Made by a program: the position numbers and the translations under genes. This document shows positions 1 through 44,911 of a DNA stretch of 64,000 nucleotides, piece after piece. Position 1 is the stretch's first letter. Every line of letters begins with the position of its first letter. The notes under the pieces are model-generated. The model made no database searches, had not been told where the DNA came from, and saw only the letters and a program-made list of their open reading frames with translations. This stretch comes from Cyanophora paradoxa CCMP329 (lineage: Eukaryota; Plantae; Glaucophyta): assembly GCA_004431415.1 (NCBI GenBank), contig QPMI01000641.1, positions 114,079 to 178,078 of the forward strand, in the 5' to 3' direction.

Positions 1-130
1 CGATTCCCTCAATGAGACTTTTAGCGTGTTGGTATGTGATCGTTTTTAGACCGCCTGTTACCGCTCTAATAAAGTAACGGTTGCGGTGGTCTTTCTCAGA
101 ATAGGTTGAGTATAGACGTTCACCGCCATC
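1..130 (-). pseudogene. 3' continuation of element A basic protein gene, split by the fold-back element
   Basis: Minus strand reads DGGERLYSTYSEKDHRNRYFIRAVTGGLKTITYQHAKSLIEGI, matching the paralog 40719..41480 (DGGERLYSTYSEKDHRNRYFIRSTTGGLKSVTYQYAKSLVDGI). Confidence 0.92.
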
Positions 131-160
131 TATATCTGCACTTTTGGAGTATTGCAATAC

Positions 161-510
161 CTTCGACAGAATCTGCGACAGAATCAGTCGATAAAATTCG
201 ACAGAATCGGTCGACCGATTCTGTCGCAGAATCAGTCGATCGACTGATTCTGTCGATCGACTGATTTTGTCGACCGATTCTGTCGCAGAATCAGTCGATA
301 AAATTCGACTGATTCGGTCGACCGATTCTGGCGCAGAATCAGTCGATCGACAGAGTTGGTCGATCGACTGATTTTGTCGACCGATTCTGTCGCAGAGTCA
401 GTCGATAAAATTCGACAGAATCGGTCGACCGATTCTGTCGCAGAATCAGTCGATCGACTGATTCTGTCGATCGACTGATTTTGTCGACCGATTCTGTCGC
501 TGAGTCTGTC
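161..510. repeat. Left subterminal array of TCGA/GTCGAC-centred palindromic repeats
   Basis: Recurring CGACAGAATCGGTCGACCGATTCTGTCG and GCAGAATCAGTCGATCGACTGATT units. Confidence 0.9.
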
Positions 511-950
511 GATCTGTTGTGTTTTTATTTTATTATACTTTCAACCTAATCTGCCGATCCATATCTTAATTATAATAAGCCAGTTTTATATATATTCTTA
601 ATAATTTGTGGCCTGGCCCTAGGCCTAGGCCTCGCCTGCGCATGCTGCATGCGCCTGCTGTCTACGCGTACGTATACTGGGGTCCTGAATCCTGATCGAT
701 ATATATATAATATATACTCTCTCGGGCCCAGGCCAGGCGCCTGCCCGGCTCCAGCAATCCAGCAGGCCCCGGGCGCGCCTTGTGCCCATCTGCCTCTGGT
801 TGCTCTGCAGTCTAGAACTAGAGACCGGCGGACTGTAAATTTAGCTATAGGCAGCACATCAACACTGAATCATGCAGCGTGGGGCCTAGCACGAGCAGGC
901 TGAAGGGAGAGGTACTAGGGATTCACATGTAGTACTAGTAATTAACTAGT

Positions 951-1326
951 AAGGGCGAGTCATAAGCCGGAGGATAACGGGTGAAGCGATGCGGCCCGCA
1001 CCAGGTCGTTCTGCACCTCGCCGCGCTCGCTGCGCCATGCATCGCGGTGAGCGAGAGCTCGAATCGAATGGAAAGAGGCAACGCCGGCACGCAGGCGGAT
1101 ATGCATGCGCACCTCGGCGAGGAGAGGAGAGGGAGAGGAGAGCACGAAAGCGGCTCTCCTAGGGCGCCCGGCAGCCCACGACCGCGACCGCTGATGGCAA
1201 GGGCGACGCGCTCGCTGCGCTTGGAGAGTCAATCGAAAGAAAAGAAGCGTCCGCGCCGGCGAACGACCGCACCTCGGCCCGAGAGGCCGAAAGCATGATC
1301 TCCGAGGCGCCCGGCAGCCCGCGACC

Positions 1327-1358
<32 letters not shown>

Positions 1359-4140
1359 CTCGCTGCGCTCGGATCGAAAGAGAAGAAATATGCGCGACAG
1401 CAAACGACCGCACCTGCGCCCGAGCGGCCGCAAGCATGAACTCCGAGGCCGATCCCAGCAGCCACCGGGCCACACGTCCGGAAAGCGGCACGCGCTGCGC
1501 TGCGCACGCCGCCGGCGTTACAACAAGATCAAAGGGCGAGCAGTGGAGACAAGAGCGAGCACCTGGCCTGCGGAAGAAGGCGCCGGGCGAACTGGGCGGT
1601 GGTGTTCTGCTCGCGGGGACCAGTCACGCCCGCTCCCTGGCCCGCCAGCGAAATGAGGGATTGAATCAAAGGAGAGGAAACGAAAAGCACCTTGCTTCGC
1701 CTCCGCAGCCGCCGCCTACGTTCCGCGCGTGCCTGTCAGCGGCAGAACGCCCACTGGCGACAGCCGCGGGAGGAATGGACAAAAAAGGCAACAAGGAGGT
1801 CGACAGCGATGCGTTCGCGAGCGTTCGCGGCCGCAACCGGGCGCCAGCCACCCTGAAGCAGCGCTCTGCGTTTGAAATCAGGCGGGCGACAGGCGGCGAG
1901 AGGCGCCAGAGGATGCAAGAGAGGACCTTCGAGCATCGTTCGCGCTGGAAGCCGACGAAGTTCGCCGCGGCGGCAGCAAGTCCGTTCGACCTGGTTTGAA
2001 AAGCGGAATCAGAGACGCGGGCAGCGCTGCGAGACCCCGGAGGAGCCAACGAACCGAGCCGTTGTGAGAGTGAAGCGCGTCCGCGCGGCAGCCTTCAGTC
2101 GAGGCTGCAGCTGCTGGCAGCAAGGCACATGAAGGCGCTTCAAGGCAGCAAGTTTGGGGTACACGACTGTTGGGAAAAGCCTTGTGAGGCCCACAGCGGC
2201 AGGGCCGCCGCGGCAGCCGCGCCGTAGTATAGCTTTCCGAAGCCGCCTGAAGCGATTGCCAACGGCTCGACCTGGCCCTCGGTCCAGAGCGCCTCCCGCT
2301 GCGGCACCTTCGCGCGTGCTCGCAGCACGCAGCGCGAGGCAGCTACAAGCACGTGAGCTTGTAACCATGGGTCCAGCTCCCCCCGTAGCGTCGTCCCTGC
2401 GCCGCGCCGATCCACAGCTAGATCGACGTCGACCAGCTGCAGGCCCGCAACCCCGCGCTGGGTGACTTCGCCGTGCTGGCCGGGCTCTTAAGCTTTGCGT
2501 GGCTTTCAGCTCACTTACATCCGCAGTATCTCTACCAGACAGCCCCGCGGTCGATTTGGAGGGTTGAGGTGCACACCGGCCGGCGGAGCTCTCTCACATG
2601 TTTCGGTTCATAGCGCGTCCTCTAAGATGCTCACGCAGTGCCTCTGACTCTGGACTGGCCGGGCGCTGCGTGAGCGCGCGGACCGACGCAACCTCCCGAT
2701 CGGCGGTCGCCTCGGGTGCGCCTACCAAGCACAGCATTTGGCCAGCGACGCGCGAGCGCGTAGCTGACGAGGCCCAGATCGCCAGGATGGGTGAGCCGCC
2801 TCGGATCGTCGCAGTTTGGGAGACATTCTTCTACACTGCCTAGGTGAGCCGGCTGGGCCCGTGCGCGTCGCTGACAGGACGCGTACGCGTCGCTGACGGG
2901 GCGCGCCGGTAACACAGGATACCGGAAGACGCCGCGTGAAGCCCAGGGGCTGGGGTGCGGCGGGTGGCGACGCCGCTCGCGGGGCGGGGCGGATCCGGAG
3001 GCGCGGCAGGCGGCCGCGTGAATTCCAGGATAGGGCGGAGGCGCTTCCTGCGGCGCTGCAGCTCGCGGAGGCGGGCGGGCGGCCGGAGGCGCGGCGCGTG
3101 GCGGCGCGGCTCGCCGGGCGGGGCAGAGGCGCGGCGGGCGGCCGCACGGCTCGCCAGGCGGGCCGGAGGCGCGGCGGGTGGCGTCGGCGGCTCGCCGGGC
3201 GGGGCGGAGGCGCGGCAGGCGGCGGAGGCAGCTTGCCGGGCCGGGCGGAGGCGCGGCGGGCGGCCGCGAGGCTCCGCTGGGCGGGGCGGAGGCGCGGCGG
3301 GCGGCGGCGAGGCTCGCCAGGTGGGCCGGGGGCGCGGCGGGCGGCGGCGCGGCTCGCGGAGCGGGATGGATCCTCGCGGGCGGCGGCGAGGCTCGCCGGG
3401 CGGGGCAGACGCTCGGCGGGCGGCCGCGCGCCTCGCGGGCCGGGGCGGAGGCGCGGCGGGCGGCGGCGCGCCTCGCTGGGCGGGGCGGAGGCGTGGCGGG
3501 CGGCGGCGGCGGCTCGCGGGGCGGGATGGAGGCGCAGCAAGCGGCGTCGGCGGCTCGCCGGGCGGGGCGGAGGCGCGGCAGGCGGCGGAGGCAGCTTGCC
3601 GGGCCGGGCGGAGGCGCGGCGGGCGGCCGCGAGGCTCCGCTGGGCGGGGCGGAGGCGCGGCGGGCGGCGGAGGCGGCTCGCGGGGCGGGACGGAGGCGCG
3701 GCGGGCGGCGGCGGCGGCTCGCGGACCGGGGCAGACGCTCGGCGGGCGGCCGCGCGGCTCGCCAGGCGGGCCGGGGGCGCGGCGGGCGGCGGCGCGGCTC
3801 GCCGGGCGGGCAGGGGGCGCGGCGGGCGGCGGCGCGGCTCGCCGGGCCGGGCGGAGGCGCAGCGGGCGGCCGCGAGGCTCCGCTGGGCGGGGCGGAGGCG
3901 CGGCGGGCGGCGTCGGCGGCTCGCCGGGCGGGGCCGAGGCGCGGCAGGCGGCGGAGGCAGCTCGCCGGGCCGGGCGGAGGCGGGGCGGGCGGCGCGCGGC
4001 TCGCTGGGCGGCCGGAGGCGCGGCGCGCTGCGGCGCGACTCGCCGGGCGGGGCAGAGGGGCGGCGGGCGGCGGTGCGCAGGCGCGGCGGCCGGCTGCGCG
4101 GCTCGCGGGGCAGGGCGGAGGAGTGGCGCGGCGGAGGCTC
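951..4140. repeat. Left long inverted-repeat arm (unique part plus GC-rich minisatellite at about 3070-4140)
   Basis: Reverse complement of about 6150-9695 with scattered substitutions and indels. The ORF track mirrors this (1736..1936- equals 8742..8942+). Confidence 0.9.
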
Positions 4141-4200
4141 GTGGGGAAGCCTGCAGATGCTCGCTCTGTACCGTAGTACTCTTGCGTAGATCATCGGATA

Positions 4201-6148
4201 TGCACCCCGCCCATTTCGAGGGTGGGAAATCCGAATCTGAAGTTCTCGTCAGCTCGTCCGTTCTCATATGCTCAGCGCGGCGACTTCGCACTTCTTTGCA
4301 CATGATCATGATCATGAGTCTCTAGCTGCCATTAAAAGAATACTGGGTTCCTGGCACATGTAAGCACCCGGAGATGATATCAGCGCCCCACTGTGTATCT
4401 GTAGAGTATTTGACGAGAAGCTCAGGGCTCCCGGGCATTGCGGCGGGGAAGAACGACTCCCTTATAGGGTTTCTCCCGAGATCAATTTTGAGAGCCGATT
4501 CCCAGTCCGCCCGTGCCTTTCCAGCTCAGATGCCAACGGATACGAGTCATTTGATAGCGTGTTAGATAGGGCCTCAACGTGATTACCGGCTGCCGGGCTT
4601 CTATTCGCATTTCCTGGCGCGCGGGAAGGCCTCAAAATGCCCGCCAAAAATAATGGCGACTTGCCCTGCAAAATAATGCACGGCACGCTACGAGCTAGCT
4701 TGCGGCCTGCGCCGACCTCAAAATCAAATCCAGCACTGTCAAGAACCCCCGAAAGCGTCTCATCGTCCGGATGTAACTTGTCAGATAAGATGCTATCCTT
4801 GGTGATTTCTGTCCTTGAGGCCTCTTTGGGGCAAGTTGACAGTCTCGGAGAGCTCGCTTGACCTGACGCCGCTCCGTCATCTTGGTCCGCGACTGACTCC
4901 ACATTTGCACCCCGCCCATTTCGAGGGTGGGGAATCCGAATCTGAAGTTCTCGTCAGCTCGTCCGTTCTCATATGCTCAGCGCGGCGACTTCGCACTTCT
5001 TTGCACATGATCATGATCATGAGTCTCTAGCTGCCATTAAAAGAATACTGGGTTCCTGGCACATGTAAGCACCCGGAGATGATATCAGCGCCCCACTGTG
5101 TATCTGTAGAGTATTTGACGAGAAGCTCAGGGCTCCCGGGCATTGCGGCGGGGAAGAACGACTCCCTTATAGGGTTTCTCCCGAGATCAATTTTGAGAGC
5201 CGATTCCCAGTCCGCCCGTGCCTTTCCAGCTCAGATGCCAACGGATACGAGTCATTTGATAGCGTGTTAGATAGGGCCTCAACGTGATTACCGGCTGCCG
5301 GGCTTCTATTCGCATTTCCTGGCGCGCGGGAAGGCCTCAAAATGCCCGCCAAAAATAATGGCGACTTGCCCTGCAAAATAATGCACGGCACGCTACGAGC
5401 TAGCTTGCGGCCTGCGCCGACCTCAAAATCAAATCCAGCACTGTCAAGAACCCCCGAAAGCGTCTCATCGTCCGGATGTAACTTGTCAGATAAGATGCTA
5501 TCCTTGGTGATTTCTGTCCTTGAGGCCTCTTTGGGGCAAGTTGACAGTCTCGGAGAGCTCGCTTGACCTGACGCCGCTCCGTCATCTTGGTCCGCGACTG
5601 ACTCCACATTTGCACCCCGCCCATTTCGAGGGTGGGGAATCCGAATCTGAAGTTCTCGTCAGCTCGTCCGTTCTCATATGCTCAGCGCGGCGACTTCGCA
5701 CTTCTTTGCACATGATCATGATCATGAGTCTCTAGCTGCCATTAAAAGAATACTGGGTTCCTGGCACATGTAAGCACCCGGAGATGATATCAGCGCCCCA
5801 CTGTGTATCTGTAGAGTATTTGACGAGAAGCTCAGGGCTCCCGGGCATTGCGGCGGGGAAGAACGACTCCCTTATAGGGTTTCTCCCGAGATCAATTTTG
5901 AGAGCCGATTCCCAGTCCGCCCGTGCCTTTCCAGCTCAGATGCCAACGGATACGAGTCATTTGATAGCGTGTTAGATAGGGCCTCAACGTGATTACCGGC
6001 TGCCGGGCTTCTATTCGCATTTCCTGGCGCGCGGGAAGGCCTCAAAATGCCCGCCAAAAATAATGGCGACTTGCCCTGCAAAATAATGCACGGCACGCTA
6101 CGAGCTAGCTTGCGGCCTGCGCCGACCTCAAAATCAAATCCAGCACTG
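4201..6148. repeat. Central tandem repeat, 705-bp unit, about 2.8 copies
   Basis: TGCACCCCGCCCATTTCGAGG starts at 4201, 4906 and 5611. Identical ORFs recur at 705-bp spacing. Confidence 0.95.
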
Positions 6149-6149
6149 A

Positions 6150-9100
6150 GAGCCTAGTGCCCGCCCGCCGCACCTCTGCCCCGCCCGGAGAGCCGCGCCT
6201 CCGCCCCGCCCGGCGAGCCGCCGACGCCGCTTGCTGCGCCCCCGGCCCGCCTTGCGAGCCGTGCGGCCGCCCGCCGCGCCTCTGCCCCGCCCGGCGAACC
6301 GCGCCGCCGCCCGCCGCGCCCCGGCCCGCCTGGCGAGCCGCGCGGCCGCCCGCCGAGCGTCTGCCCCGGTCTGCGAGCCGCCGCCGCCGCCCGGCCGCGC
6401 CTCCGTCCCACCCCACGAGCCGCGCCATAGCCCGCCGCGCCTTCGCCCCGCCCGGCGAGCTGCCTCCGCCGCCCGCCGCGCCTCCGCCCGCACGGCGGAG
6501 CCCCGCCGCCGCCCGCCGCGCCACATTCTCGCCCGGCGAGCCGCGCCGCCGCCCGCCGCGCCCCCGGCCCGCCTGGCGAGCCGCACGGCCGCCCGCCGCG
6601 CCTCCGTCCCGCCCCGCGAGCCGCCGCCGCCGCCCGCCGCGCCTCCGCCCCGCCCAGCCGAGCCTTGCGGCCGCCCGCCGCGCCTCCGCCCCGCCCAGCG
6701 GAGCCTCGCGGCCGCCCGCCGCGCCTCCGCCTGGCCCGGCGAGCTGCCTCCGCCTCCTGCCGCGCCTCCGTCACGCCTCGCGAGCCGCGCCGCCGCCCGC
6801 CGCGCCCACGGCCCACCTGGCGAGCCTCGCCGCCGCCCGCCGCGCCACAGTCTCGCCCGGAGAGCCGCGCCGCCGCCCGCCGCGCCCCCGGCCCGCCCGG
6901 CGAGCCGCGCCGCCGCCCGCCGCGCCCCCGGCCCGCCTGGCGAGCCGCGCGGCCGCCCGCCGAGCGTCTGCCCCGGTCCGCGAGCCGCCGCCGCCGCCCG
7001 CCGCGCCTCCGTCCCGCCCCGCGAGCCGCCTCCGCCGCCCGCCGCGCCTCCGCCCCGCCCAGCGGAGCCTCGCGGCCGCCCGCTGCGCCTCCGCCCGGCC
7101 CGGCGAGCTGCCTCCGCCGCCTGCCGCGCCTCCGCCCCGCCCGGCGAGCCGCCGACGCCGCTTGCTGCGCCTCCATCCCGCCCCGCGAGCCGCCGCCGCC
7201 GCCCGCCGCGCCTCCGCCCCGCCCAGCGAGGCGCGCCGCCGCCCGCCGCGCCTCCGCCCCGGCCCGCGAGGCGCGCGGCCGCCCGCCGAGCGTCTGCCCC
7301 GCCACTCGCCGCCGCCCGCGAGGATCCATCCCGCTCCGCGAGCCGCGCCGCCGCCCGCCGCGCCCCGGCCCACCTGGCGAGCCTCGCCGCCGCCCGCCGC
7401 GCCTCCGCCCCGCCCAGCGGAGCCTCGCGGCCGCCCGCCGCGCCTCCGCCCGGCCCGGCAAGCTGCCTCCGCCGCCTGCCGCGCCTCCGCCCCGCCCGGC
7501 GAGCCGCCGACGCCACCCGCCGCGCCCCCGGCCCGCCTGGCGAGCCGTGCGGCCGCCCACCGCGCCTCTGCCCCGCCCGGCGAGCCGCGCCGCCACGTGC
7601 CGCGCCTCCGGCCGCCCGCCCGCCTCCGCGAGCTGCAGCGCCGCAGGAAGCGCCTCCGCCCTATCCTGGAATTCACGCGGCCGCCTGCCGCGCCTCCGGA
7701 TCCGCCCCGCCCCGCGAGCGGCGTCGCCAACCACCGCACCCCAGCCCATGGGCTTCACGCGGCGTCTTCCGGTATCCTGTGTTACCGGCGCGCCCCGTCA
7801 GCGACGCGTACGCGTCCCGTCAGCGACGCGAACGGGCCCAGCCGGCTCACCTAGGCAGTGTAGAAGAATGTCTCCCAAACAGCGACGATCCGAGGCGGCT
7901 CACCCATCCTGGCGATCTGGGCCTCGTCAGCTACGCGCTCGCGCGTCGCTGGCCAAATGCTGTGCTTGGCAGGCGCACCCGAGGCGACCGCCGATCGGGA
8001 GGTTGCGTCGGTCCGCGCGCTCACGCAGCGCCCGGCCAGTCCAGAGTCAGAGGCACTGCGTGAGCATCTTAGAGGGACGCGCTATGAACCGAAACATGTG
8101 AGAGAGCTCCGCCGGCCGGCGTGCACCTCAACCCTCCAAATCGACCGCGGGGCTGTCTGGTAGAGATACTGCGGATGTAAGTGAGCTGAAAGCCACGCAA
8201 AGAACCCGGCCAGCACGGCGAAGTCACCCAGCGCGGGGTTGCGGGCCCGGTCGATCTAGCTGTGGATCGGCGCGGCGCAGGGACGACGCTACGGGGGGAG
8301 CTGGACCCATGGTTACAAGCTCACGTGCTTGTAGCTGCCTCGCGCTGCGTGCTGCGAGCACGCGCGAAGGTGCCGCAGCGGGAGGCGCTCCGGACCGAGG
8401 GCCAGGTCGAGCCGTTGGCAATCGCTTCAGGCGGCCTTGAAAAGCTGTACTGCGGCACGGGCCGCCGCGGCGGCCCTGCCGCTGTGGGCCTCATAAGGCT
8501 TTTCCCAACAGTCGTGTACCCCAAACTTGCTGCCTTGAAGCGCCTTCATGTGCCTTGCTGCCAGCAGCTGCAGCCTCGACTGTAGGCTGCCGCGCGAACG
8601 CGCTTCACTCTCACAGCGGCTCGGTTCGTTGGCTCCTCCGGGGTCTCGCAGCGCTGCCCGCGTCTCTGATTCCGCTTTTCAAACCAGGTCGAACGGACTT
8701 GCTGCCGCCGCAGCGAACTTCGTCGGCTTCCAGCGCGAACGATGCTCGAAGGTCCTCTCTTGCATCCTCTGGCGCCTCTCGCCGCCTGTCGCCCGCCTGA
8801 TTTCAAACGCAGAGCGCTGCTTCAGGGTGGCTGGCGCCCGGTTGCGGCCGCGAACGCTCGCGAACGCATCGCTGTCGACCTCCTTGTTGCCTTTTTTGTC
8901 CATTCCTCCCGCGGCTGTCGCCAGTGGGCGTTCTGCCGCTGACAGGCACGCGCGGAACGTAGGCGGCGGCTGCGGAGGCGAAGCAAGGTGCTTTTCGTTT
9001 CCTCTCCTTTGATTCAATCCCTCATTTTGCTGGCGGGCCAGGGAGCGGGCGTGACTGGTCCCCGCGAGCAGAACACCACCGCCCAGTTCGCCCGGCGCCT

Positions 9101-9695
9101 TCTTCCGCAGGCCAGGTGCTCGCTCTTGTCTCCACTGCTCGCCCTTTGATCTTGTTGTAACGCCGGCGGCGTGCGCAGCGCAGCGCGTGCCGCTTTCCGG
9201 ACGTGTGGCCCGTGGCTGCTGGGATCGGCCTCGGAGTTCATGCTTGCGGCCGCTCGGGCGCAGGTGCGGTCGTTTGCTGTCGCGCATATTTCTTCTCTTT
9301 CGATCCGAGCGCAGCGAGCTCTTCGCCCTCGCCCTCGCCCTCGCGGTCGCGGTCGCGGGCTGCCGGGCGCCTCGGAGATCATGCTTTCGGCCGCTCGGGC
9401 CGAGGTGCGGTCGTTCGCCGGCGCGGACGCTTCTTTTCTTTCGATTGACTCTCCAAGCGCAGCGAGCGCGTCGCTCTCGCCATCAGCGGACGCGGAGCGA
9501 TCGCAAGCTGATCTTCTGCCTCCTCTCCTCGCCGAGGTGCATAGCCGCCTGCGTGCCGGCCTTTTCCTCTTTCCATTCGATTTAAGCTCTCGCTCACCGC
9601 GATGCGCATGGCGCAGCGAGGGCGGCGAGGTGCAGAACGACCTGGTGCGGGCCGCATCGCTTCACCCGTTATCCTCCAGCTTCTGACTCGCCCTT
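6150..9695. repeat. Right long inverted-repeat arm
   Basis: Ends ...TTATCCTCCAGCTTCTGACTCGCCCTT, a near reverse complement of 951 onward. Its GC minisatellite is longer than in the left arm. Confidence 0.9.
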
Positions 9696-10221
9696 TGTTG
9701 CCTAGCAACTAGGGACGAACGACTAATTGAAGCCGCGCGCGAGCGGACGGCGTCGGGCTGGAGTGCGTGCGGCTGCATCCGGGGCCAGGGTAGGGTTTAT
9801 ATTTGCAGGACTAGGCAGGGCTAGGCCAGAGTAGGGATCATATTTGCGATGTGACAGCATGTATGCATAGGTGTGTGCATGCAGATCATGAATTAGGCGG
9901 CCCGCACGATATGTGAAAATAGGTGGCCTGCAGATCAACTAATTTATATAGATGCAAAAAGCCAATGCCAGATGTACATGTGTTCTGGCCCGCCTATAGC
10001 TAGTCATGGGCCGTCAGGGCCTATATATAGCTATATAGGCTATAGTGTAGCTGACCTATGCCTGTGCATGCGACCTGCAGCTGGATCCCCCGGAGATCCT
10101 CCACTAGTACTGGCTCAATATTTATACAAGATAATATACAAATCAATAATCTTAATATGAAGAATATTAATCAATTTATCGACAAACCTGGCGATATATC
10201 AATATATATTAATATATCAAG

Positions 10222-10565
10222 TATCGACAGATTTTGTCGACCGATTCTGTCGCAGAGTCTGTCGATAAAATTCGACAGAATCGGTCGACCGATTCTGGCG
10301 CAGAATCAGTCGATCGACAGAGTTGGTCGATCGACTGATTTTGTCGACCGATTCTGTCGCAGAGTCAGTCGATAAAATTCGACTGATTCGGTCGACCGAT
10401 TCTGGCGCAGAATCAGTCGATCGACAGAGTTGGTCGATCGACTGATTTTGTCGACCGATTCTGTCGCAGAGTCAGTCGATAAAATTCGACTGATTCGGTC
10501 GACCGATTCTGGCGCAGAATCAGTCGATCGACTGATTCTGTCGATCGACTGATTCTGTCGACCAA
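10222..10565. repeat. Right subterminal palindromic repeat array
   Basis: Same GTCGACCGATTCTGTCGCAGA units as 161-510. Confidence 0.9.
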
Positions 10566-10595
10566 GTATTGCAATACTCCAAAAGTGCAGATATA

Positions 10596-10928
10596 GCCAT
10601 CAAGGAGTTTAAGAAGGGTCGACGATGTTGCTACCTTCTCAGTGGTCGATGATTTGAACTGACCCTTTTTAATTCCGCGCTTTGCACCGGGCATACGATT
10701 AAGCGGGACTTGATTAACAAGGGCGTTATCATCATGCACATCTTTTGTTGATGCTTGTGTATATTGGTTTCTGTCTTTGTGAACGTCACGATCAATGTCA
10801 CCATTACCATACGCTGCAACACCCTTGGATTTCTTGTACCAATTCCTTCCTTTCATTTCACCATCGCCAACGTCCGCTTCCACCGCTGGTTTGGCTAAGA
10901 AATTCTTAGGTTGAGTCTTGCGAGGCAT
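10596..10928 (-). pseudogene. 5' part of element A Lys-rich basic protein (interrupted)
   Basis: MPRKTQPKNFLAKP...LLKLLDG matches the N-terminus of 40719..41480. The rest of the track ORF is read-through into the TIR. Confidence 0.88.
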
Positions 10929-10960
10929 TTGAAATAACACAACAAAAATAATTTACAAAA

Positions 10961-11863
10961 TTACATATTACGGGAGAACGGCAAGTAAACGCCTTCTAAC
11001 TCTTTTATGACGTTTTTCAATGCCTTCTTTGTCAGATCCTTGTCATCTTGTGTTATCAGTTCAAGAGTCATCGACCAATCAGTGGTAATATCGGTTTCTA
11101 CACCATTCCAATACGTGAGACGCACTTTCAGTGTTTCAACTTCTACTTCCCCATTCTGCTCATGCAAGATCATAGAGTTATTCGATGAATCATATTTCAG
11201 AAGACTACCTACCGTTTGGTCGATCTCAATTTTAGCAAGCGCTTTATCGTCGCTGGTGTTCTTGCTTACGTAATTGCCTTTGAAGGGGTCAACATGTAGA
11301 AGGATGTAAGAATTGAACAGAAGATCAAGTGGTATTACGCTATCGACGTAATGGTTGTAAGTGATTGAACCAATCTCAACTGGCGCATCAAGTGGAGCGG
11401 AAGCATAACCATTTTCCGAACTTGCAGGTGTAAGATCAGGGAAACCAAGGAAGTTCGCTAAGATCCTACTACCAAATCGTAGGTTAAATACTGCATCCGA
11501 CATGAACCTTAGAGATATGGTAACAGGATCGTATGTCACATGGAAATGGCGAGTGTAGGTAGTTCCAACTGCACCATATGACTGTGAGGCGAGTTTTGCA
11601 TTTAGTAGATTCACCAAACTATCTGTTGTGTATGTACCTTTCGTAATAATATTACTTCTGGTCTTAATCACATTTGCAGCATCGTAAGTAGATGTAATGA
11701 GCGTTCCATTTTCGCTGAGATTGTAGATGTTGTTGAACATTTCGAAATTGGTAACGCGACACGCTTTAACCTTCTGGATTGCATGGGGAAGTTTGTAAGT
11801 AAAGTTTGTTGGGGTTCCATCATCTCGGTCTCTGGAATCAATATTAAGATAATGACGCGTCAT
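10961..11863 (-). CDS. Minor capsid protein (penton), element A
   Basis: N-terminal YLNIDSRDR..F.Y.L...VK..RV..FE..N.YN and C-terminal L.V.L....G.....DWSMTLE pattern typical of PLV/NCLDV pentons. Divergently oriented from the MCP. Confidence 0.8.
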   Translation of the reverse strand: MTRHYLNIDSRDRDDGTPTNFTYKLPHAIQKVKACRVTNFEMFNNIYNLSENGTLITSTYDAANVIKTRSNIITKGTYTTDSLVNLLNAKLASQSYGAVGTTYTRHFHVTYDPVTISLRFMSDAVFNLRFGSRILANFLGFPDLTPASSENGYASAPLDAPVEIGSITYNHYVDSVIPLDLLFNSYILLHVDPFKGNYVSKNTSDDKALAKIEIDQTVGSLLKYDSSNNSMILHEQNGEVEVETLKVRLTYWNGVETDITTDWSMTLELITQDDKDLTKKALKNVIKELEGVYLPFSRNM

Positions 11864-13053: not shown

Positions 13054-13458
13054 AGCTCAGCACTGCGCCGTGTCTCCAAAAAAATACCCGCGAAAAAAAT
13101 CAAAAACAAATCAGAAAACAAACCATTCCCAGTAACCCAATCTTGAATATCAGTAAATCTCAGTAAGCCTCAGTAACCAAAATTGAATTAATCGAAGTTA
13201 TATCATAATCTCGATTAATTATATCTTATCGAAGTTATATCTTTTTTATGCGCCGTGTCTCCAAAACAATTCCCAAGAAAAACAAACCATTCACAGTAAC
13301 CCAATTCCAAATCTCACTAAATCTCAGTAAGCCTCAGTAACAAAAATCGAATTAATCGAAGTTATATCTTAAATCTTATTTATCGAAGTTATATCATTAT
13401 CTCGATTAATTATATTTAATCGAAGTTATATCCTTTTTATCCGCCGTGTCTCCCATGA
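13054..13458. repeat. Left TIR of element B
   Basis: Reverse complement of 46645-47049. Internal duplication of about 190 bp, three copies of CGCCGTGTCTCC and repeated ATCGAAGTTATATC. Confidence 0.95.
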
Positions 13459-13459
13459 T

Positions 13460-14521
13460 TTAGCGTTTCGTTAAACCACTTCTCAAATTGTATCTCCTCC
13501 GAATTACATTACTCCGATTGGGTTTTATGCCTTCTTTTGCTACCAATCGATTCACTTTATTCGTTTTATTAACCTGCTGAATCCGTTTTTGTGATGGTAT
13601 CTTAATGATATCATCTTTATTCACCTTTTGCAATTCTTGTTTCTTAAATCTCCTCTTCACTTCTTTTGTTTCCTCACCATCATTATCTTCAAGCACTTTG
13701 AAACGATTCCTATCAGCCTTTGCAACAGTGTAGACCTTCTGACTGAATTGCGCACCTTCTTTTTCAAACAATCCCTTTGGTTGCAAAACTCGAACTGTGT
13801 CTCCTGGTTTCACTTGATTAGTATCAGCCTCCTTTACACGATTGTTGTGAACAGTATCCCTCATGTAAATAAATAACTGTTTATCTTCATTTGTATACAC
13901 TGCATTTGGAGAGTCATTTTTCAATGCAGAATGGGGACTGCTATTATACAAGTCAATTACATCACTAAGTAGATCGATCCATTTCGTGGTTCCCTTTGCT
14001 GTCATCGATTTTCTGAGATACTGTTTGAAAGTCCTAGTGAACCTATCAATTATCCCCAGTTTATCTCCTACTGTGATGTGGTCATCCTTTGCCACATCTG
14101 TGTATAGCATTACACCATGTTCACTGCACCAATTTCGGTATACTGCCTGGGAAAACTCATTATCCCCAGAGAGAGCATTAACTTTGCCTGCTTCTTGCTT
14201 GAACCTATTTAAAATGCTCGGGATCTCACTGCTGTTTTTAAAAGGATAAACAAATCCTTTGCGACTAAGTATGTCTACGAAACTAAGCATTTTGAAAATG
14301 CCATTGTTGGCAGTCTGAAACCCTCTGAAATATGTTATATCGATTTGAAACGATCTAGGCTTTGCCACTATGCGAAGAAACGATTTGGGTTTCCTTGGTT
14401 TCTTGTAAATTTGCTGGAGTTCTGAGTTTTTGAACTTCTTTTTCAACTCTTTTTCATCAAAACTCACTTTTTCATTAATCAGTTTCTGCCTATACTTTTT
14501 GAATGATAATACACTATCCAT
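13460..14521 (-). CDS. Retroviral-like (rve) integrase, element B
   Basis: FQID...VDILSRK...SGDNEF...IIDRFTRTFK...YNSSPHSAL...PGDTVRV motifs of Polinton/PLV integrases. Confidence 0.9.
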   Translation of the reverse strand: MDSVLSFKKYRQKLINEKVSFDEKELKKKFKNSELQQIYKKPRKPKSFLRIVAKPRSFQIDITYFRGFQTANNGIFKMLSFVDILSRKGFVYPFKNSSEIPSILNRFKQEAGKVNALSGDNEFSQAVYRNWCSEHGVMLYTDVAKDDHITVGDKLGIIDRFTRTFKQYLRKSMTAKGTTKWIDLLSDVIDLYNSSPHSALKNDSPNAVYTNEDKQLFIYMRDTVHNNRVKEADTNQVKPGDTVRVLQPKGLFEKEGAQFSQKVYTVAKADRNRFKVLEDNDGEETKEVKRRFKKQELQKVNKDDIIKIPSQKRIQQVNKTNKVNRLVAKEGIKPNRSNVIRRRYNLRSGLTKR

Positions 14522-18852: not shown

Positions 18853-19875
18853 TTATGTGAGACTGAGAAGCTCACCTGTGAATGTTGTTCGATTTGTGTA
18901 GCTACCCCCATTATTTGTTACAAGTGTTACATACTCACCCATAGCAATGTTGAGAATTACACTAATGTAAAGCGGTTTATTCGTGAGAGTGGAGTTATTT
19001 TGTGTTATAATACTTTGACCCCCTGGGTCTTGGTCATTTACTTTTAAAGAGAGACTTATTGGACTACTTGATGTTGAATGGGTATATGCTGTAAATCTGT
19101 AATGACCTGCAACAGGAGCAGTGAACCTACCATTACCCACATTGAATGCCCCCCTATTATTCACAAACACTACCCCCCAATTGATAAGAGCAGTTTCACT
19201 GGTAGCAACATGAGGATAATTAAGTTGAACAGAAAATCGAGGCTGAAAATCATATTTTAAATAACAATTTGTATTAATTGTCAAGCGATTGGCTTCAAGA
19301 GTAGCCAAAACATCACTATTGCGTTTCAAAACAAGATTTACATCTGCTCCTGTATCGATTTCAGGTGTGACCACCTTGGAAGTTGCTGTTATTATCGATT
19401 GTGTTGTTTCTGGAATACTTATGCCTCCATGGGCTGTTACTGAACCTGTAAATGTGCTTGTTCCTGTAATGTTCACTTGATTGGCTGTTAGAGTTCCATC
19501 AATCCTTGCCCCATCTCCAATATATGCCCCTCCACTTCTAACTGAAAGAGCAGCATTATTAATTGTATTATCAAAAGTAACTATTTTGGGTGTGGTGAAC
19601 CCTCCCACATTGTCATAAATTGCTGTATCTGAAACAATTTGACCTGATTGGACTTGGTTCTTGTTAGATACAATGAGACCTGTGGTTCTCACTTTTCCCC
19701 CATTGCGATCACATCGAATTTCTTTACATCTAATCACAGAGTTCTGTGAAAACGAATCAGCCCCTGTTGTTTCTGTGCAAATAAACCCAGGTGTTGCATC
19801 TGTTACTGTATGGTTCAGTTGATGTATTTTTGGGGCGGCATAACAGAAAACAGGAACAGCAATTTGTGTAGACAT
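18853..19875 (-). CDS. Fibre protein with C-terminal C1q-like domain (paralog 3)
   Basis: Shared N-module. C-terminal PRFSV...VFVNNRGAFNVGNGRFTAPVAGHYRF...FTGELL is a C1q signature. Confidence 0.8.
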   Translation of the reverse strand: MSTQIAVPVFCYAAPKIHQLNHTVTDATPGFICTETTGADSFSQNSVIRCKEIRCDRNGGKVRTTGLIVSNKNQVQSGQIVSDTAIYDNVGGFTTPKIVTFDNTINNAALSVRSGGAYIGDGARIDGTLTANQVNITGTSTFTGSVTAHGGISIPETTQSIITATSKVVTPEIDTGADVNLVLKRNSDVLATLEANRLTINTNCYLKYDFQPRFSVQLNYPHVATSETALINWGVVFVNNRGAFNVGNGRFTAPVAGHYRFTAYTHSTSSSPISLSLKVNDQDPGGQSIITQNNSTLTNKPLYISVILNIAMGEYVTLVTNNGGSYTNRTTFTGELLSLT

Positions 19876-19897
19876 TCTTTATACTATACAGATAATA

Positions 19898-20968
19898 TTA
19901 TGTAGCACTAACAAGATCACAAGAAAGATAGTATCTGATATCAAATTGAAGAGTGGCACCAGAACTATTGCGCATATCAAAGGAGTCACCTTGAATAAGA
20001 GAAAGTAAAACTTCAAATGAAATTGGAGTTACAAATGTATTAGAAATCCCCGCGGACGGCATTGAAACTCTTGTTTGGAGGGTTGTAGGATTTCCATTTA
20101 AATAAATGCTGGTAGCAATATGAGTATAAGAGGTTGTGCCAGCTCTCATGCATGCAAAGAACACCCTATATACTCCGGAAACAGGAGCTGTAAATTTTGT
20201 GGATGCAAAGTTTCCCTCATTGTTTACAAAATAAGCTCCACCTGTAAAGGAAAATGCTGTTGCAGTGTTAAGTATTACTGTCCCTGTCATACCAGGAGCT
20301 TGTCTTGATATATTCATTCTTGGACAATAGGTTCGTTTCAGACCACTATTTTCCGGGATTGTGATTACATTCAGATCTGTTATTGTCTTTTCGAGAGTGA
20401 AAATGGTATCTCCGTTTCGTTTGTAATTCATATTCACATTTGTCCCATTGTCTATCTCAGGTGTTTGAACTCTTGTGGTTGCTTTTCGAGTTTCAACGCT
20501 AACAGTTCCCGAGAGTCCGCCATTGAAGGTCATCAATCCTGTAAATGAACTTGTTCCATTCACATTAAATTGATTTGCTGTGACAGTCCCCACCACAATT
20601 GCTCCATCACCAATGTATGCCCCTCCACTCTTGACCACAAGAGCCGAGTTATTACTTGTGTTATCAAAAGTAACTATCTTTGCTGTGGTGAATCCACCCA
20701 CATTATCATATATTGCTGAATCGGGGACTACCTGCCCTGCTTGAACTTGATTTTTATTCGAGATTATAATGCCTGTGGTTCTAATCTTGCCTCCATTTCG
20801 ATCACATCGAATTTCTTTGACTCTGAGTATACTATTCTCTGTGAAAGAGGTATTGCTTGAAGTTTCTGTGGAAATATACTCAGGGGTTGAATCAACTACT
20901 CCATGAGAGGTGCTGTGAAGTGATTTTGCGGCGAGTTCATAGTTTGGGATTTCTAATAGAGAGGTCAT
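19898..20968 (-). CDS. Fibre protein with C-terminal C1q-like domain (paralog 4)
   Basis: Start taken at MTSLLEIP. N-half highly similar to paralog 3. FVNNEGNFASTKFTAPVSGVYRV. Confidence 0.8.
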   Translation of the reverse strand: MTSLLEIPNYELAAKSLHSTSHGVVDSTPEYISTETSSNTSFTENSILRVKEIRCDRNGGKIRTTGIIISNKNQVQAGQVVPDSAIYDNVGGFTTAKIVTFDNTSNNSALVVKSGGAYIGDGAIVVGTVTANQFNVNGTSSFTGLMTFNGGLSGTVSVETRKATTRVQTPEIDNGTNVNMNYKRNGDTIFTLEKTITDLNVITIPENSGLKRTYCPRMNISRQAPGMTGTVILNTATAFSFTGGAYFVNNEGNFASTKFTAPVSGVYRVFFACMRAGTTSYTHIATSIYLNGNPTTLQTRVSMPSAGISNTFVTPISFEVLLSLIQGDSFDMRNSSGATLQFDIRYYLSCDLVSAT

Positions 20969-20987
20969 CTTTATAATTACGAAATAG

Positions 20988-23900
20988 TTAAATTGCGACA
21001 GCAATGTAATGAATTGTAACTGGAAATCCTGGTCTGTCAAAAGAACTTAATGGAACTATGCCAAGCTCACAAGTGAAATAGCTACTGTAAACTTGTTTAA
21101 GCCTAACATACATTCGATAGTAGTAGGCTGTCTCATTGTGTTGTATACCAGTTGTTACAATAGGAGGGTTAGCAAAGCTGCTGTTGAAATTAATAGTGAG
21201 GTTAAACCTATGGTCAGGATTTGCCCAAAGATAAGGAGTAGTGTAAACATACGTTCCTGCTTGGATTTTCCCATTAAAATACGCATTGAGTTGACTGGAT
21301 AGATCCGCTTCTGTAATGCATCTACTGATAGTCTGATTATTTGAAGGGTTCATAGCATAAAAGTTTCTTGCATAGGCATTTCCACGAACAAGTAAGGTTT
21401 TATCGAAGTAATTTTGCGAATTGTGGAAAAACCATGTTTCATCAAACATAGGTCCTGCTGGTTCTACAATCTGACCTGATCCTACATACATTGTGTTGTT
21501 CGCTCTGATGGTGGTAGCTGTAAAGGGATCGAGGGTGGGTTTATTGGTCAGGTCATTGTAGTTGCCCGAAAAAATCGCTGGTTTGTTATAAATATCTGTA
21601 TTCCAATCATGAGTGTGTGCAAAATCTGTAATCTCTGCCTTTGTGTGGGTGTGACCTACATACGCAACATTTCCAAGATCTGTAATCTCTGCCTTAGTGT
21701 GGGTGTGCCCAACATATGCAACATTTCCAAGATCTAGAATCTCTGATTTAACATGAGTGTGGGCGAAATTCGTAATATCTGCTCGGGTGTGATAGTGTGC
21801 AAAATCTGTTATTTGGGACTTGGTGTGAGTGTGTGCGAAATCTGTAATCTCTGCTCTTGTGTGGGTGTGGGATCTATTATTAAGATCGAGGAAACTCCCG
21901 AAAATGCAACAGGGTGTAGATTCGCCGCAGTAGGTTTGTTAATAAGATCATTATAGTCTCCTGAGAACGAAACGGTTTTCAGTTCACCCCTTCCTACATA
22001 ATCCGAAGGGAGATCGATTTTGATGGGCATGATAGCAGGATCAATAGGAATTTCGTATTCGGCTCCTGGGTGAATCACAGGGAAGACTTGATCATTTTCA
22101 GTGTGAACAAAAAGTTGTCGGCAGTCACTGTTCCGTCAATAGTTCCTCCTGTCAAGGGAAGGTAATTTCCTGTCACAGCTAGACCTGCAATAACTAATGC
22201 GAGCTCTGCTTCGTCTACGTAGTTTTGGGCTTGAAGATAATCCTCTGTAACCACTCTGGATATTGTCTCGTTGTGAATGTTCTTTGCTGCTGCCCTCTGA
22301 TTTATTTCTAAAACTCCCTCGCCAACTCCACCATTATAATTCGTTTTAATCCATGCTATTTCACATTTTTTATAATCGTCTCGGTTTCCAATTAAAGCTT
22401 CGGGTAAAAGGCGTTCACGGCTAAATACCAATTTCGGTCTCGATGAATCTAAATCGCTAACATCTGTTACATTAATCTGGATTGCAGAATGAAAATCAGC
22501 ATGGGAGAGAGGATCTAACGGCAGTGAAGGCAAAGGAGGTAGAACAGATGTCATTTCGATGTCAGAGGCGTAGTAGTTTGTGACATAAATACTTGGGAAC
22601 GTGTCCTGCAAACCGATATTCCCGCCAGCAGCAACTATCTCCATTCCACGGGGAATCCTTATAAACAAAGAGCCTGACATGTCAGTGTTAGCACGAATTC
22701 CCTGCCTGTGGACATAGTGGTCATTCAAATATAACCTTTCAGGGGTGTTAATTGATTTGTAGAGAGAGACAGCTAGTGTGACAGGAAGCTCAATCTTTGC
22801 GAACTCGGGCTGCTCATCTATTTCGCTCCAAATGTGTCTGTGATCTTCCGGTGGAAATTCAAGCGGAACATTATCAAGGTCACCCCAGTCGTGTCTATGA
22901 TCCTCTGGAGGAAATTTAAGCGGTTTATTATCGATATCATCCCAGTCGTGTCTATGATCTTCTGGTGGAAATTGCAACGGTTTATTATCGATTTCATCCC
23001 AGTTATGTCTGTGATCTTCCGGTGGAAAATTCTCAGGTTTGTTGTTAATAGATTCCCAGTCCACTGTGAACTCCAAGGGGAAGAAAATAGGATCAAAGCC
23101 GTCTGGAAGCAGCTGCTCATGCGGAATCACAGGCTGCTCGTACTCGAGTTCTTGAACATCTAAGCCATCAGGAAGTAACTGCTCTTCCGGCTCTGTGTAC
23201 ATCTCGAGTGGAAAAACTTCTATATCAGGCGGTAGGTATTCTTCATGCGGATGCTTATAGGGTTCAATCACTGGGCGATTCCTGACAGCCTCCCACGATA
23301 TAATATTTTGACCAAATGGGATTGTTTCATCAGCAACTCGCTCTCGACCTGGTCCATCCGGGATTGGCGGCTTTGGTAACCCTGGAAGAGGCGGTATAGG
23401 TGGTATAGGGACAATAGGTCCGAAGTAGTAGTTGAAAATGTTGATCACCTCCTCTTCAGTGCTAACCTTCTTACCATCCTGATAAATATTAGTTCCATGA
23501 ATATTTCTCCACTGCCTGGTGCGAAGCCCTAGGTCATATCTATCATGCAATGCGGGGAGCAGGTGCCTGTCAGCCTCAATCAAGATAGAGCCAAAGGTGC
23601 ATCCAGGAATATCTAACCTGGTGGCTGGCTCGGTATCGATTTGATTAACATCGAAACCGTACAAAATATTTGTCTCTCTTGCAGCAGTATATAGTAAATC
23701 CCAGGGAAACGGCTGAATTTGTGATGCTAGCACTGATATTCCTGCATCTTCACCAAGGAGAATTCTCCCTGTAATTTGGGCCGCAGTTTTGTTTGTGACA
23801 TCATTGGATTCATCAATTAGACGTAGAGCTGATGTGTGGACCCCTCTATCATTTTGGAGCCTAAAGATTAATCTACCAGAATCATATTTGGAAACTGTGC

Positions 23901-24186
23901 CTGAGGAGGCAATTCGCAGGTGCCGCGGCAACGCCCTGGATCCGATTATTTCAGCAACATAATTCTCAGCTGGACCCAGACAAAATCTCTGTGCGATATT
24001 TGGGGCACCGACGTGTGAATTGCGCAGAATTAATGCAGCTGGTCGATTAAACTCGGTCCTGTGGATGTCACGATCAGCATTGTAGTCAGCCAAGATGCTT
24101 CCGAAAACGCGAATATTTATATGTCGATCATCCACGAGATCTGGAGCTTTACGAAGTGGCACTGGCTTCTTCAAGATGTAGGACAT
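20988..24186 (-). CDS. Long tail-fibre-like protein (about 1066 aa after correcting two 1-nt deletions)
   Basis: PPEDHRHxWxxIDNKP x4, YLPLTGGT, FSGDYNDL.NKP and HTHT.AEITDF repeats, with a C-terminal INFNSSFANPPIVT lectin-like tip. Frameshifts near 22110 and 21897 join track ORFs 22075..24186, 21809..22078 and 20988..21491. Confidence 0.75.
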
Positions 24187-24210
24187 TTTTATATAAGCCC
24201 CCTTTTAAAA

Positions 24211-25695
24211 ATGAAGGTCATTCTCTCACTATCAGGTGGAGGTGCTCGTGGAATAGTCATAGCCCGAATTCTACAGCGGATTGAGGCGATTACTGGGAAA
24301 GCAATACCACAGCTGTTTGATTTCTTTGCAGGCACCTCAACAGGGGCAATAATAGCGGCCGGATTGGCGATCCCATCAACTCCAGGCTCTGTTCTTGCTT
24401 ACCGATATTCTGCAGGTGATATCTTGAGTCTCTACCAGACGAACCTGCCAACAATATTTGCAAATCCAAGATCACTGACAAGCTTGCTCTCAGGCAGCCG
24501 CTATGATGCAAACCCTCTGGAGTCGGTGCTCACAGACGTTGCCCTGGACTACACAATTGCAGAATCGACCAAAGACATATTAATTACAGCGTTTGATACA
24601 GTTCGGATGCAGCCCGTAGTTTTCACCAAAGATGGGCCATACTCGAGCACGCTGATTCGTGATGCAGTTAGAGCATCTTCTGCAGCGCCAACATTCTTTC
24701 CACCGAAGGTTCTAGGGGACAAAAACCTTGTTGACGGGGCAATTGCCTGTTTGAATAATCCATCAGTTGCTGCACTCAGCCACGCCAGTAAAATTTACGA
24801 TGCAGAAGATCCAATTGTTCTTGTGAGCATTAGCTGTGGTGAAGTCCAAGCCAGTGAGCAATTGACTGCAGGCTTTTCGAATTCGGAGACGTCAGGCTGG
24901 GGCGCTCTGGGCTGGATCCTATCCCTCTCAGGCAGCCCAATAATTTCTATGCTAATGGCTGGTAGCGAGCTGGAATCCCACTTTCAAATGCAGGAGCTGC
25001 TTCCAGTTGATGCAGATAGGAATCTCACTAGATACTGGCGTTTAAGTGTTCCGCTGCCAGCTGCAGTCATGAGCAAGCTTGATGATGCCTCTCCATCGAA
25101 TATTTCTTATTTGATTTCCACAACTGACTTATGGCTGAAACAAATCGAAATAAATGCTAAAATAAATGCACTCTGCAGCTTTCTATTGGCGAACTACGAC
25201 CTACTGAACGATGAGAGACTTATCATATCGTCTACTTTAACAGTTGAGCCTCCATTTGATGTCAACTGGTTTATAATTCCAGATGCGAATATCACAAGCA
25301 ACGACTTTGAGGAATTGCACCCACCTTCTCATGTGCGACCCAACTCTACAGGGTTTCAGGGGGGAACATTACCTAATCCCTGGATCAAAGTCGAGTTTTC
25401 CAAGCCTTTTGAGCTACATCAAATCATTATGTATGGGCCAGCCTTTGCTGCCGGAGTCCTATTTAATTTCAGCATTCTGACCAACTTAGGATATGTCCAA
25501 GATGGGAGGCTTTTTGAAAATACGGTCCTAGCAAATGTGCTTGCTGCAAACCCATCTATGACAGGCTTTGATCTAATGCATAGTGACTCGCATTTGATCA
25601 CCCCACAGGTTTATAACTATGTGCAAATTATAACAAACGAATTTATAAATGTGAATGCATTCCGGCTTGATTTCCGGGGACGTTACATTAATTAG
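24211..25695 (+). CDS. Patatin-like phospholipase with C-terminal beta-sandwich (discoidin-like) domain
   Basis: SGGGARG, GTSTG, SSAAPTFFPP and DGA motifs. C-terminal PWIKVEF.KP..LHQI.MYG...FRLDFRG. Confidence 0.9.
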   Translation: MKVILSLSGGGARGIVIARILQRIEAITGKAIPQLFDFFAGTSTGAIIAAGLAIPSTPGSVLAYRYSAGDILSLYQTNLPTIFANPRSLTSLLSGSRYDANPLESVLTDVALDYTIAESTKDILITAFDTVRMQPVVFTKDGPYSSTLIRDAVRASSAAPTFFPPKVLGDKNLVDGAIACLNNPSVAALSHASKIYDAEDPIVLVSISCGEVQASEQLTAGFSNSETSGWGALGWILSLSGSPIISMLMAGSELESHFQMQELLPVDADRNLTRYWRLSVPLPAAVMSKLDDASPSNISYLISTTDLWLKQIEINAKINALCSFLLANYDLLNDERLIISSTLTVEPPFDVNWFIIPDANITSNDFEELHPPSHVRPNSTGFQGGTLPNPWIKVEFSKPFELHQIIMYGPAFAAGVLFNFSILTNLGYVQDGRLFENTVLANVLAANPSMTGFDLMHSDSHLITPQVYNYVQIITNEFINVNAFRLDFRGRYIN

Positions 25696-30457: not shown

Positions 30458-31096
30458 ATGGGCAGAGGCATTCCTAAAAAGGGTTATCGCGAACGACGCA
30501 AGATTAATCCTATAGAGCCAAATGCTCCACTGATTGAAAGCGGCTCAACTGAGGGCGCAGCTGTTGCTGATCCTAGCGGTGAGCTAGCTAGTGACCCCCG
30601 TCTAAATGCACCTGTAGCTAAAACGATTGCCTCCGCAGCTGCTAATGCCAGTGCGGTTGACGACCGCCACGCCCAGGCTAAAATCGTTACTGAAATTCAG
30701 TCCGATATCGATGAGGATGCAGCCCGGATCATTCGTGCGATGGCGTCTGAACCGAGATACTCCGGTCCAAAAATCAAGACAGCAACAGTATCAAAGAGTC
30801 AGATCGAGGAACTAACAGCTAAATTGCGAGATCTCGAGGCTCGATCGGCTAATATCGAATCGTATGTAAAAGAGAAGCAAGAGAGAGCGAAGATCCGCGA
30901 GATGTTGCGCAGCGAGATGTTTAAACATAGACCTATGGACGTACCAGATTTACGCTATCTCAAAAACGAAAAAGAGAAGGCTTCACAAGCTCTCGATGAC
31001 GCTGCTGTAAAGCCCGCAACGCCTTATGTGTCTGAAGCGAATTCTACAAGCTCACAGATGAAGGGAGCTCTGGGTGGACGGCGGATTCGGTTGTGA
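30458..31096 (+). CDS. Hypothetical protein (basic N-terminus, coiled coil)
   Basis: 212-aa ORF starting 9 nt after the ATPase stop. Confidence 0.7.
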   Translation: MGRGIPKKGYRERRKINPIEPNAPLIESGSTEGAAVADPSGELASDPRLNAPVAKTIASAAANASAVDDRHAQAKIVTEIQSDIDEDAARIIRAMASEPRYSGPKIKTATVSKSQIEELTAKLRDLEARSANIESYVKEKQERAKIREMLRSEMFKHRPMDVPDLRYLKNEKEKASQALDDAAVKPATPYVSEANSTSSQMKGALGGRRIRL

Positions 31097-44522: not shown

Positions 44523-44766
44523 AAGGTCGATTTTTGAGAAATGTTGTATAATAAGGTAGCTTGAAATACTGTGGGGATTGCACAGTTGCGTAGAGCTTAA
44601 ACAGCGCTTCAAACCGATATGCAGAACGTTGCGAGATCATAATCTGGTGATGAGATACAAGCGTTTGAAGATGCCGATAATCGATTTACCGAAACTTCGG
44701 TGAAACGTGAGCGAAACTTGAACCGTGAGATCATATACCCTACTATGGTTTATTCCCCGGGTTTTC

Positions 44767-44853: not shown

Positions 44854-44911
44854 AAAAGTCCCTACTCTGTGGCATGAACCAATCAGAAGCCAGCAAATTT
44901 AAAATTAATAT

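Follow-up and report, generated by a model that had tools for sequence, protein, structure and literature searches.

Integrase-like DDE enzymes typically produce target site duplications (TSDs) of 6 bp, according to the sections of Kojima and Bao 2023 (PMC10045372) on which we draw. In the same sections, complete IS3EU families always carry TA..TA ends and usually a 6-bp TSD, and GingerRoot, which forms one lineage with IS3EU, has 6-bp TSDs and mostly TA..TA ends. Excerpts of a second study (PMC6839031) report TA..TA ends in 72 of 77 GingerRoot elements, frequent carried gene fragments, and TSDs that are richer in G+C than the genome. Fold-back architecture with repetitive arms is known from Drosophila FB, from Tm1 (Mutator/Foldback) and from Galileo (P superfamily). 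In Galileo, many THAP sites located in the repetitive terminal inverted repeats (TIRs) are bound by the THAP domain of the transposase, and a multimer has been proposed (PMC3688188, excerpts). Finally, retrotransposons are often located near endogenous virophage or Polinton-like insertions, as stated in part of PMC10120064. Here, we describe a 10.5-kb fold-back element in DNA of Cyanophora paradoxa CCMP329. The stretch that we analyzed, hereafter the window, comprises 64,000 nucleotides (contig QPMI01000641.1, positions 114,079 to 178,078). It contains three nested small double-stranded DNA (dsDNA) viruses, A within B within C, and the element interrupts a gene of virus C.

As mobile elements go, the element is well preserved but fairly ordinary. 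We consider it very probable that it is a non-autonomous cut-and-paste transposon of the host. In the fuller version that we favor, with less assurance, it is a non-autonomous host fold-back DNA transposon inserted in a gene of a Polinton-like virus (PLV), likely mobilized in trans by an IS3EU/GingerRoot-type integrase-like DDE transposase. A previous reading of the window, made from the sequence only, had taken it for a satellite moved in trans by a PLV-type or other DDE integrase.

Insertion site and architecture of the element

The element spans positions 131-10595, with borders exactly where the sequence-only reading had placed them. The window contains exactly two occurrences of the 30-mer TATATCTGCACTTTTGGAGTATTGCAATAC, one at 131-160 on the plus strand and one at 10566-10595 on the minus strand, with 0 mismatches; no such pair arose across 100 shuffles. 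The element starts with TATATCTG and ends with CAGATATA, giving TA..TA termini, and is flanked on both sides by the hexamer GCCATC. On the minus strand, the open reading frame (ORF) that it interrupts reads ...LLKLLDG on one side and DGGERLY... on the other. The DG codons were duplicated at insertion, as compared to the single DG of an intact paralogue located in virus B, within the same window (40719-41480, 253 aa). The two parts of the interrupted gene share 90/111 (81%) and 36/43 (84%) identical residues with this paralogue. No match to the interrupted gene was found in Pfam or in the atlas.

The empty site was also recovered. In all four other DNA runs from the same organism that were analyzed (X1, X7, X9 and X14), contigs of 663-781 nt join position 124 to position 10596 with 6 shared letters, and show 0-2 differences from the flanks of the window. 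Hence, the read-through ORF, the paralogue and the empty-site contigs together document the insertion, the 6-bp duplication and the state that preceded them, the length of the duplication being measured at one insertion only. The 30-bp TIR, the 6-bp TSD and the placement inside a virus gene, all proposed beforehand, are thereby confirmed.

Inside the TIRs lie two subterminal arrays of period 107, built of palindromes (Table 1). The half-site GAWTCNGTCGA has 41 matches in the window, as compared to 0.32 expected, and all of them are within the arrays, 22 in the left one and 19 in the right one, where they form palindromes of 18 bp and 22 bp. The arrays are each self-complementary to 72-77%. When 163-489 is compared with 10237-10563, the two arrays are 94.8% identical in direct orientation over 327 nt without a gap, and only 77% identical in the inverted sense. 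Since they are direct copies of each other, the arrays do not extend the TIR. Their units being palindromic, the same sites are nevertheless offered in either orientation. This direct orientation is new as compared to the sequence-only reading. The confinement of 41 out of 41 half-sites to the arrays parallels the THAP sites of Galileo.

The spacers that follow the arrays (514-950 and 9696-10222) have nothing in common beyond a 21-nt AT-rich run. Further inwards, two inverted arms of about 3.2 kb each (951-4141 and 9695-6542) are 94.0% identical over 3218 columns, with blocks of 98-99% identity that reach 753 nt. Their non-satellite parts, of about 2 kb each, are 95.0% identical and differ by 42 mismatches and 13 gaps (58 gap positions). 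The arms enclose the tandem core of 705-bp repeats. Overall, the palindromic arrays, the unlike spacers, the arms of more than 3 kb and the tandem core recognized from the letters were all recovered in our analysis.

Copies and spliced transcription units

Besides the DNA runs, four runs among X15-X20, which are labeled as RNA by guess, were mapped onto positions 1-11500. Their contigs contain GT..AG joints in both arms. On the minus strand (CT..AC as read on the plus strand), joint 1029>1113 is found in three of the four runs, 1499>1563 and 1635>1690 in two runs each, 8055>8127 in two and 8168>8228 in one. On the plus strand, 9534>9615 is found in three runs and 9643>9705 in all four. The intron ends read GTGC...GCAG. 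No such joint is present among the 15 joints, out of 178, that are listed for the DNA runs, and the virus flank 10753-11500 has zero cover in the four runs. Therefore, RNA is the likelier source of these four runs.

In the left outward unit, contigs cover positions 477 or 514 to 1029, joined to 1113-1216. In the right one, contigs cover 9778-10089 and 9821-10252, and the deepest bin is 9601-9984 in X15 and X20. Towards the ends of the element, contig coverage extends to 477-549 on the left side and to 10252 on the right side. According to the orientation of the splice sites, two units are present in each arm: an outward-reading one, of which the spacer is the 3' part, and an inward-reading one directed toward the satellite. 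Such GT..AG-spliced units in the arms are new as compared to the sequence-only reading, which had expected kilobases of double-stranded RNA if the element were transcribed. The splice orientation means instead that the arms yield same-sense copies rather than complementary RNAs; no hairpin transcript was seen in the contigs, which cannot exclude one. Some joints in the RNA contigs connect the arms on opposite strands. Considered as a sign of hairpin RNA, these joints were read as mapping ambiguity due to the near-identical arms and to repeat-number variants.

Other copies of the element leave traces in the same data. A variant of the left array-spacer-arm junction (477 or 514 to 998), which carries T789C and a 6-bp deletion at 637, is present in 4/4 DNA runs and in 4/4 runs of the presumed RNA set. 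Since it spans 37 nt of the array, it derives from a copy of the element and not merely from a parental gene. In addition, in a 942-nt contig of X15, 830 nt with no match in 1-11500 precede 2 flank bases and the left TIR, with 80 nt of array at the end. This unrelated 830-nt flank in front of the left TIR identifies a second insertion locus. The ratio of spacer depth to virus-flank depth is about 2 in three of the DNA runs (X1, X9, X14) and about 0.5 in the fourth (X7), which suggests a low and variable copy number. The best reading is that the element has been recently active and belongs to a family with other copies.

The right outward unit also varies. In another copy, seen in three DNA runs and in the presumed RNA runs, the 76 nt at 9701-9778 are replaced by 15 letters, and RNA contigs use 9645>9778 as an alternative joint, with 12 intervening letters. 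Thus, the last intron and exon of this unit are not the same in all copies.

Superfamily and rival explanations

A view of the element as matching no known type is not supported: TA..TA termini together with a 6-bp TSD fit a known cellular superfamily, IS3EU/GingerRoot. The TSD is 6 bp long at the one insertion measured, the termini are TA..TA, and terminal inverted repeats are present, perfect over 30 bp but shorter than those of Selaginella GingerRoot. The target hexamer is also GC-rich, with 67% G+C within a virus of 43% G+C. Further likenesses to IS3EU/GingerRoot are the existence of non-autonomous derivatives and the carriage of transcribed, non-transposase DNA. On the other hand, the element differs from that superfamily by its lack of a visible transposase, by its 3.2-kb inverted arms, satellites and tandem core, by its palindromic subterminal arrays in direct orientation, and by its host, a GC-rich eukaryote instead of a clubmoss or an animal.

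Several points weigh against the reading that we favor. The superfamily is deduced from two end features of one insertion, with no transposase found. The TIR measures 30 bp, as compared to 100-150 bp in Selaginella GingerRoot (PMC6839031, excerpts). In the literature portions at hand, we met no statement of fold-back arms in IS3EU/GingerRoot or of its occurrence in this host, no effective search dedicated to these points having been made. Polinton integrases also make 6-bp TSDs, and virus A made one in this very window. The copy number, about 1-4 per genome, is a depth ratio relative to a flank whose own copy number is unknown. Lastly, the RNA label of X15-X20 is a guess, to which only the GT..AG joints and the zero depth of the virus flank lend support.

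With no transposase available to decide the superfamily, the match to IS3EU/GingerRoot might be coincidental, and the element might belong to another or an undescribed DDE superfamily, either MULE-related Foldback, P/Galileo or a new one. MuDR relatives, for instance, make TSDs of 4-10 bp (PMC10045372, excerpts). The architecture itself resembles that of Foldback-like elements (Drosophila FB, Tetris, nematode Tm1, Galileo), with long and internally repetitive inverted arms that contain 41-bp satellites, little or no coding capacity, satellite-like arrays, and many short repeated sites near the ends. However, TSDs are 9 bp long in FB and Tm1 and typically 9 bp in MULEs, while they measure 7 bp in Galileo and 7-8 bp in the P superfamily. 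The 6-bp TSD of the element corresponds to neither the Foldback nor the P pattern, and no THAP transposase was found. In addition, the termini of FB/MULE and Galileo/P families are, to our knowledge, not TA..TA, unlike those of the element. Another difference from Foldback-like elements is that the end arrays are direct copies of palindromes, located outside any extended inverted repeat. Both end features that were examined fit IS3EU/GingerRoot, and an origin in a different superfamily is possible but not likely. Dada elements, with TSDs of 6-7 bp, insert into small-RNA genes. The target here is a protein-coding virus gene, and tRNA and Rfam scans of the whole window gave 0 matches.

If the element is indeed mobilized by an IS3EU/GingerRoot-type enzyme, a transposase encoded elsewhere would bind the 18-bp and 22-bp palindromes as well as the 30-bp ends, probably as dimers or higher multimers. 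It would pair the 30-bp ends and excise the element. Cuts staggered by 6 bp in the target, followed by gap repair, would then give the duplication. The arms, satellites and 705-bp repeats would be passenger DNA, possibly captured or rearranged host sequence, that is not needed for movement. Promoters in the arms would read outward across the ends of the element. A bolder version, which we regard as rather unlikely, makes the element the founder of a fold-back branch of IS3EU/GingerRoot-type transposons, or of a new superfamily with 6-bp TSDs and TA..TA ends, within a GC-rich protist or alga, in which palindrome arrays act independently of orientation and spliced RNAs are read outward. Each insertion, virus knock-outs included, would in that case install read-out transcription into neighboring DNA.

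In the PLV form of the sequence-only reading, the element would be mobilized in trans by the rve integrase of a PLV and possibly packaged. This alternative is kept alive by virus A, which encodes an rve integrase and made the 6-bp TSD AATGAC. Virus B has a weak rve match as well, the element sits inside a virus, and its 10.5 kb fall within PLV size. TIRs and a 6-bp TSD, as in virus A, are indeed shared with Polinton/Maverick elements and PLVs, but a TSD of 5-6 bp is not specific to this family. The TA..TA ends match those of none of the three viruses, which are TG..CA in A and AG..CT in B and C, and the TSD of virus B is 5 bp long. BLAST of the element against the rest of the window, viruses included, gave no similarity, and none of the 41 half-sites lies outside the element. 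The terminal 24-mer of the TIR has 0 matches in viral_contigs and metagenome_contigs, the 22-bp array palindrome has 0 in metagenome_contigs, and TIR and array strings have 0 in the literature text. As compared to Polinton/Maverick elements and PLVs, the element lacks pPolB, capsid, ATPase and integrase, has other termini and another composition, and contains spliceosomal introns. Its G+C content, 66.5%, is host-like, a point not raised before: it is close to the 64.0% of the host-like flank, as compared to 39-45% for viruses A, B and C. Host-like composition, spliceosomal introns, host-type GC-rich satellites and the lack of similarity to the viruses therefore argue for a resident host transposon and against a virus satellite. 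From the earlier proposal, we retain a non-autonomous element with a TSD typical of integrase-like DDE enzymes. The PLV satellite, packageable or otherwise, is improbable.

In the host-like flank, about 3 kb at 55000-58000 have 79-81% G+C and a strong negative GC skew. This region is like the right-arm satellite in composition, and BLAST (E <=1e-10) found no similarity between it and the element.

The view of the element as non-autonomous relies on the absence of a recognizable transposase. No Pfam family reached the cut-off in any of the 20 ORFs of the element (at least 81 aa), nor in any of 71 stop-to-stop frames of at least 35 aa taken from the left half, the core unit and the right spacer. 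These results agree with the earlier statement that no transposase or integrase is recognizable. The 705-bp core unit has no frame open through the repeat and no convincing frame. One may argue that both scans missed an intron-rich transposase gene located in the arms or core, so that the element would be autonomous. At least 7 short GT..AG introns are indeed present in the arms, which contigs of the presumed RNA runs cover, and with such introns gene models are unreadable from ORFs alone. However, even frames down to 35 aa gave no Pfam match above cut-off, and the partial spliced models from the arms yield only low-complexity frames rich in Arg, Ala and Gly. Little unique sequence is left to hold a gene: outside the satellites it amounts to about 2 kb of arm, 0.7 kb of core and about 1 kb of spacers. 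We regard an autonomous element as highly improbable.

Finally, a long-read fold-back artefact (inverted chimera), which large inverted arms around a central segment could bring to mind and which had already been judged unlikely, is hardly conceivable given the 42 substitutions and 13 gaps between the arms in their 2-kb unique part, the unequal satellite lengths, the unrelated spacers, the exact TIR and TSD, and the short-read contigs of independent runs that cover parts of the element, including the arm-core junction 4125-4506.

Neither non-autonomous transposons of fold-back type nor host elements within endogenous PLVs are new in kind, and the element opens no long-standing question. Novelty would lie in the family itself, in its likely superfamily for this host, in palindromic arrays that are directly oriented and in the outward spliced units. 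As in other protist virophage and PLV insertions, a small dsDNA virus that had integrated is interrupted by a resident element of the host; in the present case this element is a TIR DNA transposon and the target is the outermost of three nested viruses. Integrated PLVs are thus struck by host transposons as well as by one another. The locus also offers a clean natural case of a recently mobile DNA transposon, with an empty site that segregates or persists in other samples, and the 18-bp and 22-bp palindromes are candidate transposase-binding sites for biochemistry. If the IS3EU/GingerRoot assignment is true, it adds a new host group and a fold-back architecture to the known range of a little-studied integrase-like superfamily.

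Nested viruses and other features of the window

Table 1 Features of the element, its insertion site and the three viruses (positions in the window).
Feature	Position	Strand	Description
Left TSD copy	125-130		GCCATC; single copy in empty-site contigs of 4/4 DNA runs and in the intact paralogue
Left TIR	131-160	+	30 bp, starts TATAT; inner 12 bp GTATTGCAATAC palindromic; perfect match pair
Left subterminal array	163-513		107-bp unit x 3.3; 18-bp and 22-bp palindromes around TCGA; predicted transposase-binding sites
Left spacer	514-950	-	437 bp, 48.7% G+C; 3' part of the outward spliced unit of the left arm
Left arm, non-satellite part	951-2945		66.1% G+C; minus-strand introns 1030-1112, 1500-1562, 1636-1689
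Left arm, 41-bp GC-rich satellite	2946-4141		88.5% G+C; 3076-4077, period 41, 24.9 copies
Central tandem core	4198-6148		705 bp x 2.77, 99.8% identity, 53.7% G+C; covered by contigs of the presumed RNA runs
Right arm, 41-bp GC-rich satellite	6150-7748		87.7% G+C, longer than left; 6192-7618, period 41, 35.5 copies
Right arm, non-satellite part	7749-9695		minus-strand introns 8056-8126, 8169-8227 (inward); plus-strand introns ~9537-9616, 9645-9705 (outward)
Right spacer	9696-10222	+	527 bp, 46.1% G+C; 3' part of the outward unit of the right arm
Right subterminal array	10223-10563		107-bp unit x 3.2; direct copy of the left array (repeat analysis)
Right TIR	10566-10595	-	30 bp, ends ATATA; perfect match pair
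Right TSD copy	10596-10601		GCCATC; flank comparison and empty-site contigs
Interrupted virus C gene, 5' part	10596-10928, continues 130-1 and beyond the window	-	orthologue of virus B 40719-41480
Virus A	16052-37306		377-bp TIRs, TG..CA, TSD AATGAC (6 bp); pPolB, rve integrase, A32 ATPase
Virus B	13054-47049		~405-bp TIRs (13054-13458, 46645-47049), AG..CT, TSD GGCGC (5 bp)
Virus C	beyond window start to 49096		AG..CT terminus as in virus B

Virus A is inserted in frame in a large helicase gene of virus B, and virus B in a capsid-like gene of virus C. Viruses B and C are siblings, with 69-89% protein identity and the same gene order. The genes of virus B include a capsid-like gene and an A32 ATPase gene, in addition to the weak rve match. 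For a capsid-like protein of 408 aa, the nearest atlas clusters are viral and a minority of them carry Capsid_N or Capsid_NCLDV, which makes its capsid identity a lead, not proof. The search for pPolB homologues returned only 2 distant matches, with 28% and 27% identity. A giant virus known from the literature, with 60.6% G+C and ACC..GGT ends, does not correspond to what the window contains.

At the left end of virus B, an ORF of 353 aa (13460-14521, minus strand) has only sub-threshold matches to rve and rve_3 (E 0.0025-0.0097); this ORF probably encodes a divergent integrase, responsible for the 5-bp TSD. Close to the other end, a 1.27-kb island of 55-65% G+C (45087-46355) lies within this AT-rich virus, with a perfect direct repeat of 15 nt, ATATACATATACATC, on either side (45072-45086 and 46356-46370). 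It could be another host element, for example a non-LTR (long terminal repeat) fragment whose target duplication is long. Downstream of the A32 ATPase gene, at 44751-45017, TTTAATGGCGCA and ATCTGAGGTATT are the units of two adjacent 12-bp tandem arrays. In virus A, ORFs at 18853-21491 and 31044-31607 include a C1q domain and, slightly under the cut-off, an H-type lectin domain, as well as a fusion of an HNH endonuclease with an AP2-like region; a patatin-like phospholipase is encoded at 24121-25695.

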